Of a DNA stretch of 64,000 bases, positions 588 through 34,928 are shown piece after piece. The first letter of the stretch is position 1; every line of letters starts with the position of its first letter. Location of the stretch: the NCBI GenBank assembly GCA_965197585.1, contig OZ240215.1:1984001-2048000 (forward strand), in the 5' to 3' direction. Position numbers and translations under genes: made by a program. Source of the stretch: Dehalococcoidia bacterium. GTDB taxonomy: Bacteria; Chloroflexota; Dehalococcoidia; Plut-88900. The notes under the pieces were generated by a model. The model was not told where the DNA came from and did not search any database. It saw nothing but the letters and a program-made list of their open reading frames with translations.

Positions 588-1386
588 GTGACACGAACCC
601 ATTGACTGAATCAGGACATCTGTACTATTATCCCCCTCGACTAGCTCGTCACTCACCCTAAACACCAAGGAGGAACCAAAAACCCAGGGGGAAGCCCAGC
701 CCTGGCCCCCGAGGACTCAACGCCCCAGCCCATCCCAACGGCCCTGCACACGGGACCCGCGGCACAAGCGAACGGCGCCATCTCCTCATCCCACCGGGTC
801 CCGTGTCCCCTTCCCTACCCAGGCGATAGAAGGTCCATCGACTCAATACGGGCAGCCCCTCTCTCATCGAGACCCTGCCCTTTCGCGCCCTACCTGATGG
901 GCGCACTGTTTAACCGGCATTGACTTCGCCGGTAACAGGTACGGCCCCACTTTGTCGGGCCTGGGGCCTCAGGGCCCTTGCGGGACTCCACCGTCGTAGT
1001 CATATACGATGGAAGCGGGTTCGCGCTCCCTCTTCACAGAGAGGTCGAGCGCTACGGGACTCCACCGTCGTAGTCATATACGACGGAAGCGGGTTCGCTC
1101 TTCCTCCTCATAAAGAGGTCGAGCGCCACTGGTAGACGGGTATGCGCCCCACGCCGAGACTCTCTCGGTCCGCCCCGGAACCAACTTGAAAACCTGTGGG
1201 GTTGCGCAGGCTGGCCTCCCGCCCCCTGTGCCCGAGTCCCGGACCTTCCATCGCCGACCCCCTCCCACCAGACAAACCGAAAACCCGAAACACGACAATC
1301 GAAGATGGAACATCCGCCTCAGGAGGATCCGCCTCAGGAGGACTGAAGAAAACCCCGGTGTGTCACTAACCTACCGAACGAGTACA
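588..1386 (+). ncRNA. Repeated non-coding structured element, copy A (candidate large ncRNA or non-autonomous mobile element)
   Basis: 5' ~250 nt and 3' ~110 nt are homologous to the reverse complement of 31474-32231; promoter-like boxes at 602-631; helices 748-759/795-806 and 822-836/1241-1255; no conserved ORF. Confidence 0.6.
981..1126 (+). repeat. 74-bp imperfect tandem duplication inside element copy A
   Basis: CGGGACTCCACCGTCGTAGTCATATACGAYGGAAGCGGGTTCGC...GAGGTCGAGCGC starts at 981 and 1055. Confidence 0.9.
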
Positions 1387-3251: not shown

Positions 3252-4394
3252 ATGGAATACAGCGTTATCTCTGCTGACACCCACCTCGACCTCACCTGGC
3301 TTCCCGGCGACATGTTCGTCGAGGCCGCACCGGCTCATCTCAAGTCCCAGATGCCCTACACAACCGACGCGGGACCCGAGAAGCGCTGGATTGTTGAGAA
3401 AGAGGACATCGCACGCGCAGGCGGATTTATAGGCTACACTCCCGGTCACTCCAAGCACATGGACCGAATGGCCGAGGTCGGCTTCTATGACGGAGTTGCG
3501 GACGGCGTCTACCATCCCGCCGTAGCCGATCTCCGAGTCCAGGACCAGGACCTGGACGGCATTGACGCCGAGATCATCTACGGCATCCTCGGCATAGCCG
3601 GCGGCGGGTTCTCGGGCCCCGGGTTCCGAAACCCGGAGGTGACCACGGCCATCTACGACATCTACAACGAATGGGTTAGTGACTTCGCGAAGGCCTCCCC
3701 CCAGAGACTCGGGGCCCTGGCCTGCGTCATAAGCCACGATCCCGAAGTCGCAGCTAAGCAGTTGAGACGAGCGGCGAAACTGGGCCTGAAAGGCGCCGAG
3801 ATCAACGTCGCGAAAATGAGTTCACCCATGTACCAGAAGGATTGGGATGTGCTTTGGGCCGTAGCCGACGAATGCGACATGCCTATCTCTTTCCATACTC
3901 TCGGCATTCCCACACGCACACCTGAAGGGGAGTCGGCATCGGACTACGCTGTCGCCTATGACGGGGTTAGAGAATGCCTCTTCCAGCTGTCGGGGGCCGA
4001 GTTCCTGGTCAGCGCCGTCTTTTCTGGGGCCTGTATGCGCTACCCCAATTTCCAGTTCGTCCTCGGTGAGTGCGGTATCGGTTGGATCCCGTACGTCATT
4101 GAGCGAATGGATGCGGAATATGAAGACCGCTACCACCCCATAGGCCTTGAGATGGCTCCGACGGCCTACTGGCGTCGGCAGGGATTCTCCACCTTCCAGA
4201 ATGAATTCGTCTCCCAGGACCAGGTGGACAGGATTGGGGCCGAGTGCATCATGTGGGGTTCCGACTATCCCCACCGGGACGGCGTCTTCCCCGACTCCCG
4301 AAAGGTCATAACCGAAGGAATGGGCCACCTGGACGATGCTGTTACCCAGCAGATCGTCTGTGGCAACGCCGCACGTCTTTACAACTTCAACTGA
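3252..4394 (+). CDS. Amidohydrolase family protein (Amidohydro_2)
   Basis: ISADTH and WGSDYPH motifs; close paralog of 1697-2857. Confidence 0.9.
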   Translation: MEYSVISADTHLDLTWLPGDMFVEAAPAHLKSQMPYTTDAGPEKRWIVEKEDIARAGGFIGYTPGHSKHMDRMAEVGFYDGVADGVYHPAVADLRVQDQDLDGIDAEIIYGILGIAGGGFSGPGFRNPEVTTAIYDIYNEWVSDFAKASPQRLGALACVISHDPEVAAKQLRRAAKLGLKGAEINVAKMSSPMYQKDWDVLWAVADECDMPISFHTLGIPTRTPEGESASDYAVAYDGVRECLFQLSGAEFLVSAVFSGACMRYPNFQFVLGECGIGWIPYVIERMDAEYEDRYHPIGLEMAPTAYWRRQGFSTFQNEFVSQDQVDRIGAECIMWGSDYPHRDGVFPDSRKVITEGMGHLDDAVTQQIVCGNAARLYNFN

Positions 4395-24434: not shown

Positions 24435-24511
<77 letters not shown>

Positions 24512-31473: not shown

Positions 31474-32231
31474 TGTATTCGTTCGATAGATTAGTGACAC
31501 ACCGGCCTTTTCTTCAGTCCTCCAGAGGCGGATGTTCCATCTTCGATTGTGGGGTTTCGGTTTCCGTTCTGTCTGTTAGGTTTTGAGAAGGCGATGAAAG
31601 ACGCTTGCCGGATTAGGCTCCCTACATTTAGATAATGCGGGCTAAGAGGCGTCCCGGGAGCGTGGGACGGGACTCCGCCGCCGCCTAGACCTGGAAGTAT
31701 GGTCGGACGTACGGGTCCGTCATCCGTCATAGGCTCCAATGAGGTTTGGCTGCGCTGTCCGCCGTAGGCGGATGCAGTAAGGGGAAAGTCCAGGGTCAGT
31801 TCCCCTCGCAGGAGTACGGGATATCCAGTTAGCCGCCTGTATCCAGGAGCCGGGAGTGGCGGACAGTCCAGTTTATTTGAGGAAGCGGACGGAGAGCCGA
31901 GCGGTCCTCGGCTACGGGCTGCCCCGTTCCGCTCCATGGGTCGGGTTGCTCCGTGAGGAGACTTTTAAGTACGGTCCAGGGCGTCTTCCATCGCCTAGTG
32001 GTCAGGGAAGGGGGAAGGGTACACGGGACCCGGTGGGAAGAGGAGATGGCGACTTTTGCTTGTGCCGCGGGCCTGCGCGAGGGCCGTTGGGATGGGCCAG
32101 GACGTTGAGTCCTCGGGTGGGGCCGGGTGGGCTTCCTTAGTTTTTGGTACCTCCTTAAGGTGGTTGGGTGGTGTTCGAACGGTGAGGATAGTAGCACGAG
32201 TGTTCAGGTAGTGTCAATGGGTTCGTGTCAC
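31474..32231 (-). ncRNA. Repeated non-coding structured element, copy B
   Basis: Reverse complement matches 588-1386 at both ends; long-range helix 31981-31996/31589-31604; promoter TTGACA-18-TACTAT. Confidence 0.6.
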
Positions 32232-34851: not shown

Positions 34852-34928
34852 TGGTGGGCGATACTGGACTCGAACCAGTGACCTCTGCGATGTCAACGCA
34901 GCGCTCTAACCAACTGAGCTAACCGCCC
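34852..34928 (-). tRNA. tRNA-Val(GAC)
   Basis: Reverse complement GGGCGGTTAGCTCAGTTGGTTAGAGCGCTGCGTTGACATCGCAG...GGTTCGAGTCC...CCCACCA. Confidence 0.97.

Follow-up and report, generated by a model that had tools for sequence, protein, structure and literature searches.

A MITE-like repeat of an uncultured Dehalococcoidia genus that appears to specify a large, folded non-coding RNA

A stretch of 64,000 nucleotides from an uncultured Dehalococcoidia bacterium (GenBank assembly GCA_965197585.1, contig OZ240215.1, positions 1,984,001 to 2,048,000), referred to here as the window, contains two copies of a mobile repeat of about 750 bases that carries its own promoter. Approximately 60 copies of it are present in the genome to which the window belongs (G000; 3.43 Mb in one contig). 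The repeat seems to encode a large non-coding RNA of elaborate fold, and it is probably, though by no means surely, a mobile element of the MITE type (miniature inverted-repeat transposable element) that carries a selected, structured RNA on its sense strand. An earlier note on the window had taken the two copies for copies of a putative RNA gene and had assigned two base-paired helices to them. The helices belong to the repeat, and the supposed gene pair turned out to be two of the roughly 60 copies of a MITE-like mobile element instead.

Copies A (588-1386, + strand) and B (32232-31474, - strand) align over two conserved blocks, one of about 250 nt on the 5' side and one of about 110 nt on the 3' side, which enclose unrelated interiors of about 400 nt. 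Blastn searches of G000 with the 5' and 3' blocks as queries returned 65 and 64 matches, respectively. At 58 loci the 5' block is present over a length above 100 nt; these are counted as copies here, as a lower bound, and jointly make up 1.08% of the genome. The 5' block also occurs in all eight further genomes searched from this genus, at 52-87 candidates per genome on first look, and in none of three other genera of the family nor in any of 29 further families of the class, each represented by one genome and searched at blastn sensitivity. A 22-base core pattern matched at least 91 stretches in genome contigs, the 80 listed all being titled 'MAG: Dehalococcoidia bacterium' (MAG, metagenome-assembled genome), and five short stretches of a single assembly in metagenome contigs; among viral contigs it had no match. 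A scan of the window with Rfam 15 at gathering thresholds yielded only two tRNAs (24435-24508, +, 59.0 bits; 34855-34928, -, 70.7 bits) and nothing inside the elements. At E<=1, eight loci spanning seven classes of the variable domain II described below gave one tRNA and weak chance matches outside the conserved core. No description of the repeat family was found in the open-access literature searched.

Just inside its 5' end, the element has an inward-facing promoter motif. A TTGAC-N16-18-TANNNT motif is located 29-40 nt upstream of the heptamer AAGGAGG in 57 of the 58 copies. In copy A this sigma-70-like promoter reads TTGACT, 18 nt, TATTAT (602-631, +), in copy B TTGACA, 18 nt, TACTAT together with a TG (32188-32217, -), and both reached a scan score of 10/12. 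AAGGAGG (667-673 in copy A) starts the conserved core and is invariant in 90/90 aligned copies, a figure to be read with the use of the same heptamer as anchor for collecting copies in mind. It is followed by no start codon in the main family. At equivalent positions of the two copies, antisense to the AACCAAAAAC leader (699-684, - strand; 32119-32135, + strand), a weak hairpin with a T run resembles a terminator; such sites are no more frequent than in shuffled sequences (1 found versus 1.3 expected; 2 versus 1.5). From AAGGAGG onward, copy A consists of a constant, C-rich domain I (667-821; 43% C, 11% T) and a variable domain II (822-1255).

Domain II is enclosed by a long-range helix. In copy A, GGCGATAGAAGGTCC (822-836) pairs with GGACCTTCCATCGCC (1241-1255) over 15 positions with one A-C mismatch (A828/C1249); in copy B, AGGCGATGGAAGACGC (31996-31981) pairs with GCGTCTTTCATCGCCT (31604-31589) with one G-U on the minus strand, the sense strand of this copy. 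Both helices were read directly and agree in position and sequence with the earlier note. Within two mismatches, the 3' arm is present in 58/58 and the 5' arm in 56/58 copies of G000. Across a set of 137 copies (57 from G000 and 80 at loci of its relatives) the outer 10 bp are nearly invariant. Copy A belongs to a superfamily of 46 copies, named GGUCC after the inner end of its helix, in which 96.2% of the alignment cells of the 15 bp are paired, as compared to 27-48% with slid partners, and in which no double change occurred. The next five base pairs inward (GACTC, 840-844, with GAGTC, 1234-1238) are paired in 82.9% of the cells of this superfamily, and one of them is changed from C-G to A-U in eight copies. 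The helix is also part of the minimum free energy (MFE) structure of copy A, and its proposed role in closing a structured interior is supported. The inner end occurs in two main forms, GGUCC/GGACC and GACGC/GCGUC, which follow two superfamilies of domain II. The compensatory change reported there is real and comprises three compensated pairs, but it amounts to one block difference between superfamilies within which the helix hardly varies; the three pairs probably reflect one event or a module swap.

Domain II itself measures 300-540 nt and falls into discrete classes with 26, 23, 22, 17, 13, 13, 7, 6, 3 and 2 members plus five singletons among the 137 copies. Copy B represents class 0, the largest (26 members); the class of copy A has six members, of which copy A is the sole one in G000. 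Two tandem units of 74 nt with two hairpins each occupy positions 982-1129 of copy A, and its class relatives possess one or two such units. Automatic consensus folding of the 46-copy superfamily recovered no more than 21 pairs, since its classes could not be aligned with MAFFT.

The arms of the closing helix are at the same time inverted repeats of 11-20 bp around interior classes of 300-540 bp that are swapped between copies. The helix might thus be a feature of the DNA, with domain II as a nested mobile unit, the GGCGATGGAAG arms as its terminal repeats and the pairing in RNA as incidental. The equally good folding of the antisense strand fits this explanation, and so do two extra copies, L188 (G000 683,500-684,600, -) and L190 (1,590,750-1,591,700, +), which share promoter and closing helix with the family and differ in domain I. 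Because these two copies join the same promoter and closing helix to a different domain I, the parts of the element are modular. Domain II was, however, not found away from domain I and promoter. A search with one mismatch proved too loose (221 background matches), so that exact sites outside the 58 copies were used; of the three loci considered (five other sites were left out), two were the copies with the alternative domain I and the third was an unrelated coding-like sequence. No direct repeat was seen by eye beside the arms, the constant 10 bp, read on the sense strand of the 137 copies, contain 34 G-U versus 8 A-C cells, and helices within domain II are under pairing constraint as well. 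We regard a nested DNA unit as very unlikely.

Domain I is closed by helix P1 (686-694 with 810-816 in copy A). It pairs AGGGAAG with CUUCCCU and, in a subtype, GGGGGAA with UUCCCCC; 87.0% of its cells are paired and both sides are changed in 5/8 pairs. P1 surrounds local hairpins, among them P3 (740-757), which in copy A is composed of GGCCC, a loop and GGG-A-CC. Of 122 distinct versions of P3, 99% have a stem of 4 bp or more; 47 different stem sequences occur, and 89.7% of the cells are paired in the local-hairpin model. As a whole, this model of domain I is 84.3% paired, with changes on either side in 10 of its 16 pairs and a covariation of 0.234 versus 0.157 after shuffling, a value reached in 0/500 shuffles. 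Automatic consensus folding of domain I led to mutually inconsistent structures, and the signal in a mutual-information scan consisted mostly of subtype differences.

The second helix of the earlier note (helix 2) connects ACACGGGACCCG (748-759) and CGGGTCCCGTGT (795-806) of copy A, both read directly. It is present there as described, with 12/12 complementary positions and, taken alone, -24.9 kcal/mol (z = -6), and the 5' arm of copy B indeed reads GCGCAGGCCCG. Copy A is the only copy in which helix 2 is perfect. In 90 copies 77.9% of the cells pair, compared to 38-48% in slid controls, while covariation is weak (0.128 versus 0.114 shuffled; 9/500 shuffles reach it). About a quarter of the copies fail to form the helix (21-27 cells at several pairs). 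In these the arms form local hairpins with compensated changes from C-G to A-U (16) and from G-C to C-G (18); the 5' arm overlaps P3, its competitor, and the 3' arm can alternatively fold into a small local hairpin, Ph, which covaries between subtypes. The major subtype may be able to form helix 2, perhaps in place of P3, and the local-hairpin model is better supported as a conserved feature of the family. In the MFE fold of copy A, helix 2 occurs together with the closing helix.

The RNA of copy A (667-1262) folds with an MFE of -266 kcal/mol (z = -4.92), and none of 100 shuffled sequences folded as well. To follow the fold between species, 16 orthologous pairs from 14 of the 57 G000 copies examined were used, each defined by a single alignment that covers the element plus 200 nt or more on both sides. 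Identity amounted to 88.9% in promoter and leader, 90.3% in domain I, 95.3% in domain II and 90.3% in tail and 3' module, and to 94.6% and 93.6% in the flanks, which are largely coding. With the pairing state taken from the MFE fold of the G000 copy, substitutions in domain II affected 6.2% of the unpaired versus 2.6% of the paired sites. Stems thus change 2.3 times slower than loops, and six of seven double changes remained paired. The pairing of domain II is constrained, or re-imported by gene conversion. The claim that the region specifies a conserved fold is upheld.

In its ends, the element behaves like a MITE. Its imperfect terminal inverted repeats are 27-28 bp long; 16 5' ends and 22 3' ends in G000 match the terminal repeat within 4/22 positions. 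Sixteen copies open with (G)ATCCCGTTCACATAGAGGGGTGACA, to which the -35 box is immediately adjacent, and 22 copies close with GTGTCACTAAYCTAYCGAACGAGTACA. The motif CGTTC-N2/3-TAGA-N4-TGACA, searched on both strands, gave 22, 21, 15, 7, 3 and 1 matches in six of the nine genomes, and the reversed motif, which served as control, had no match in the nine. Between its ends the element measures 745-770 bp, the large end of the MITE size range. Direct repeats of 6 bp, whose positions were judged by eye from script output, abut the ends cleanly in 6 of 13 two-ended copies. A clean empty site was found in the closest relative, G002: AGCCTC occurs once there, and at the corresponding place in G000 it flanks a 745-nt copy on both sides. 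At the sthA locus, the site of copy B, G002 carries an element of 93% identity and G005 one with another interior; six genomes lack it and have 110 nt of unrelated sequence instead. At locus L026, genomes without the element retain a 20-nt remnant resembling the 3' end. Terminal inverted repeats and 6-bp target duplications are the grounds on which a DDE transposase acting in trans is presumed.

A possible relative of this enzyme is encoded in G000. Of 29 matches to the rve domain, about 18 are near-identical and derive from an insertion sequence (IS) of 1.06 kb with a 329-aa frame. Its ends start with TGTA and are identical to the 3' end of the element at 18/28 positions, TGACA included. Two copies with 28-bp inverted ends were read (L020 348-1403 and L004 259-1314, corresponding to G000 ~1,007,810-1,008,865 and 3,178,073-3,179,128). 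Both sit in the same small hairpin, similar to repetitive extragenic palindromes (REP; GTCATTCC..GGAATCC), with ATTCC on each side. Three copies of this IS lie directly upstream of family elements. At G000 659,330-660,640 (reading frame in L191), another IS is inserted between 5' terminal repeat and -35 box of one family copy and splits its promoter; the frame of this IS has 438 aa and contains an rve domain (Pfam E 9e-09). A solitary 5' terminal repeat with a -35-like CTTGCG occurs at G000 3,404,966, about 120 nt upstream of a groES-like/groEL-like pair named from its translations only; it may be a promoter-donating remnant or a shared operator.

The 3' terminal inverted repeats of copies A and B are located at 1360-1386 (+) and 31474-31500 (-). 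The 5' end of copy A is a variant and was set at a GTGACAC motif. Upstream of copy B, a hairpin with a 19-bp stem and a T-rich run (window 32389-32349, -) recurs at L004 1366-1406; together with about 230 nt of small repeats it is common to copy B and another copy of the same 5' variant. The mobile unit of this variant may start further upstream. Between closing helix and 3' repeat follows a tail rich in A+C and poor in G/T (1256-1300 in copy A); over the 60 nt past the 3' arm, the 137 copies average 40% A and 40% C. Next to it, copy A has a small hairpin module twice in tandem (1308-1342; TCCGCC, UNNG, GAGGA). With a 4-nt UNNG loop and GCGGA or GAGGA as second arm, this module occurs at 101 sites in G000, 46 of them in or beside elements (43 on the element strand) and 10 within long open reading frames (ORFs); it also interrupts domain I of some copies. 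The mini-ORF MEHPPQED of the 3' module was dropped from consideration as a part of this 101-fold repeat. Hammerhead-like motifs seen by eye in the same module were dropped as well, since their flanking stems are unpaired and Rfam has no match.

The copies are located preferentially between divergent genes. In G000, 28 lie in divergent, 17 in tandem co-oriented, 8 in tandem opposed and 5 in convergent contexts, whereas intergenic regions genome-wide are 18% divergent, 64% tandem and 18% convergent. This distribution, a downstream ORF that is co-oriented for 45 of the 58 copies and the lack of a terminator-like site at the 3' end of copies A and B would suit a mobile promoter or leader that drives or tunes the downstream gene, the fold serving as 5' leader, stabiliser or sensor. 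Promoters of Correia-type MITEs drive neighbouring genes (PMC10969869). Against such a function, the tandem regions, which are the sole informative ones, show a ratio of just 17 to 8, and 13/58 copies face the 3' end of a gene or the wrong strand. The downstream ORFs form 45 unrelated groups, the largest of which, eight paralogues, is spread over seven domain II classes, so that the class is independent of the gene family. The window genes next to copies A and B, coding for an Amidohydro_2 protein and a pyridine-nucleotide disulphide oxidoreductase, both keep promoters of their own downstream of and outside the element (at 31468-31439 for copy B), and the sthA promoter is present at element-free loci as well. 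A mobile promoter or leader is an explanation that we consider quite unlikely. A riboswitch-like regulon or cis-regulatory leader was rejected for the unrelated downstream genes and the 13/58 copies that are not co-oriented.

Some features of the surroundings were noted in passing. The window contains two neighbouring Amidohydro_2 genes (1697-2857 and 3252-4394), and one Amidohydro_2 paralogue group accounts for 8 of the 58 genes downstream of family copies, which suggests that this family is largely expanded in G000. Directly downstream of two other copies lie tRNA genes (L016 2291-2362 and, by eye only, G000 2,399,452). Forty copies are on the plus and 18 on the minus strand of G000, and all seven between 2.68 and 3.0 Mb are on the minus strand. 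Between 1.1 and 2.6 Mb the GC skew of the genome is unusually strong, reaching -0.19 per 50 kb; it shows no two equal arms and fails to account for this strand bias.

Contigs from four metatranscriptome runs of two studies contain fragments that are 90-95% identical to domain I and the 3' module, and their loose ends match other family members. Such contigs indicate presence only, and the parts that they do not cover carry no meaning.

A number of results weigh against the reading of the repeat as a mobile element with a selected, sense-strand RNA. Covariation within the classes of domain II is low (5/141 pairs). Stem changes on a single side kept the pair in 27/87 cases, 21.2 being expected from the loop spectrum, and comprised 22 G-U versus 25 A-C. 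Gene conversion among the copies could mimic conservation as well as compensated changes. In absolute energy the antisense strand folds as well as the sense strand, and class alignments fold slightly better in antisense. As for mobility, the duplication is degraded or unclear in the other 7 of 13 two-ended copies, the 'empty' sites at sthA and L026 are not clean, and copies A and B combine the 3' repeat with a different 5' end without the CGTTC..TAGA part. No transposase gene was found between such ends in the nine genomes, judged from the spacing of the motif, of which no long-spaced pair occurs. In the two copies read, the 1.06-kb rve IS duplicates 5 bp (ATTCC) and not 6, and its enzyme is put forward only as a candidate relative of the mobilising one for this reason. 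The gene contexts stem from crude ORF calls made in this analysis, and with contigs of 90-95% identity the RNA libraries may contain carried-over DNA.

Part of these results would be explained by a selfish MITE devoid of RNA function, whose helices were inherited from a structured progenitor, whose similarity results from recent copying and gene conversion, and which decays neutrally. The nearest paralogue of a copy has a median identity of 92% and a maximum of 97.5%, modules are shuffled between copies, single stem changes are near neutral without an excess of G-U, and covariation within classes is rare. MITE transcripts generally form stable stem-loops (PMC10969869). Neutral decay is at odds with the slower evolution of stems and the restored pairs in six of seven double changes, and with a domain II that is conserved above the rest of the element and level with mostly coding flanks. 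P3 was maintained by 47 different stems, and the RNA core is kept in G004, G006 and G007, where the terminal-repeat motif no longer matches. A purely selfish element is in our view unlikely, yet an alternative to be reckoned with.

The strand requires a separate consideration. The functional strand could be the antisense one, or both could function, for instance as a DNA cruciform or a single-stranded DNA structure in transposition. In favour of this, the MFE is lower in antisense (-298 versus -266 kcal/mol), and the A-C pair of copy A, which the earlier note had already recognized as pointing in that direction, would become a G-U. The recent substitutions do not identify the strand, given the similar numbers of G-U and A-C among them. 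However, the z-score of the antisense strand is less favourable (-3.53 versus -4.92), the promoter is on the sense strand in 57/58 copies, the A-C of copy A is found in just 2/137 copies, and the G-U pairs that belong to the family consensus, both in the closing helix and in domain I, would become A-C. A count of 169 G-U versus 122 A-C columns on class-wise folds is biased, the fold having been derived on the sense strand, and was not relied on. We call the sense strand on the basis of the promoter, the fixed G-U pairs and the better z-score, and consider a functional antisense strand highly improbable. The preference of the earlier note for the sense strand is thereby retained on these grounds, with the qualification that the recent changes do not share it.

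Almost no credence is given to a protein encoded by the element with AAGGAGG as ribosome-binding site. Sense ORFs of 100-289 aa overlap many copies, and in L188 and L190 the sequence AAGGAG, 5 nt, ATG precedes frames of 289 and 246 codons that run uninterrupted through the element; their translations are rich in Arg, Pro and Ser and without Pfam match. The composition is T-poor, and long open frames are therefore likely by chance. Copy A lacks any ORF above 86 aa on the sense strand, indels of 1 and 2 nt separate close copies, and four element ORFs matched 0 Pfam families at E<=0.1. A protein-coding element was rejected on the missing start codon in the main family, the frame-breaking indels and the lack of Pfam matches.

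We return to the mobile element with a selected RNA and outline how it may operate. The family would consist of genus-restricted, non-autonomous MITE-like transposons of about 0.75 kb which bear the gene of a large, structured non-coding RNA and are moved in trans by an rve-type DDE transposase. The putative sigma-70-type promoter inside the 5' end would transcribe the element, with a leader of about 34 nt and AAGGAGG first, then domain I of about 155 nt with P1 around its hairpins, then a domain II of one of about ten interchangeable classes. The transcript would end with the tail of 80% A+C, small hairpins where present, and the 3' repeat. The fold, domain II above all, would be kept by selection in place and would hence matter at the individual locus. 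As to the role, we tentatively propose a stable, untranslated and self-limiting transcript, on whose unstructured C/A-rich tail Rho may load. Termination by Rho would shield the neighbours from the strong mobile promoter of an element residing in promoter regions. This role is purely inferred, which counts among the points held against the reading above; a trans-acting RNA, an RNA serving transposition or no role at all are alternatives. That the transcript founds a new class of large, ornate two-domain RNAs of about 650-700 nt, with domain I constant and domain II exchangeable, travelling as cargo of DDE transposons and kept functional at dozens of loci, is a rather unlikely extension. Members of such a class might act as ribozymes, form RNA-only assemblies or serve the transposase via targeting or regulation.

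Promoter-bearing MITEs with folded transcripts are already known. The present family is unusual in its size, its G+C-rich composition, its internal two-domain fold, its swappable structured modules and the constraint on pairing seen across species. Should the RNA be functional, it would join two fields, that of large ornate RNAs and that of mobile DNA, and would offer a natural set of about 600 variants over nine genomes for structure determination. If the element is only selfish DNA, it still occupies about 1% of these genomes, in promoter regions, and bears on the annotation of uncultured Dehalococcoidia and on the reading of their transcriptomes.

Bacterial MITEs are described as non-autonomous, multi-copy and intergenic elements whose terminal inverted repeats measure 23-29 bp and whose target duplications are short; they are typically AT-rich, bear sigma-70-like promoters, and give rise to stably folding transcripts and small RNAs (PMC10969869). 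In promoter and folded transcript, the Dehalococcoidia element resembles Correia/NEMIS of Neisseria, QMITE1/2 of Coxiella, MITEAba12 and BrickBuilt (PMC10969869, PMC5896051, PMC3184786, PMC11602168). Unlike known MITEs it is G+C-rich and large, its fold is an internal two-domain architecture with closing helices of its own instead of an end-to-end pairing, and it combines swappable domain II classes with a pairing constraint in orthologous copies.

With OLE, ROOL, GOLLD and HEARO RNAs (compare PMC12286853) the transcript has the size class of 600-700 nt in common, and only that. OLE, ROOL and GOLLD also form elaborate multi-helix folds whose function is not evident from sequence. HEARO RNAs, the omega RNAs of IscB, are multi-copy and tied to mobile DNA. 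In contrast to all four, the element has no Rfam match at gathering thresholds or at E<=1 and reaches about 60 copies per genome; in contrast to HEARO, it possesses terminal inverted repeats and target duplications and has no adjacent nuclease gene. Elements of the IS200/IS605 type are not known to have terminal inverted repeats or target duplications, and are characterized by subterminal hairpins and a link to TnpB/IscB. A derivation from them, as a palindrome-associated transposable element (PATE) or a carrier of omega/reRNA, was rejected for the inverted repeats, the 6-bp duplications and the missing HEARO match; TnpB/IscB genes were not searched.

The 1.06-kb rve IS of G000, which we take to be IS481/IS3-like, has ends related to those of the element, and both reside in repeat-rich promoter regions. 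It differs in its 329-aa frame, its ATTCC duplication, its REP-like hairpin target and the lack of domains I and II. An analogy, and only that, exists to short interspersed elements (SINEs) such as Alu, high-copy mobile elements in which a structured RNA body has a constant part and the promoter travels along. SINEs move through RNA and generate variable duplications. In the Dehalococcoidia element, the promoter is situated upstream of the RNA and is copied along nevertheless, the ends are inverted repeats and the duplication has a fixed length of 6 bp, all of which indicates transposition as DNA.

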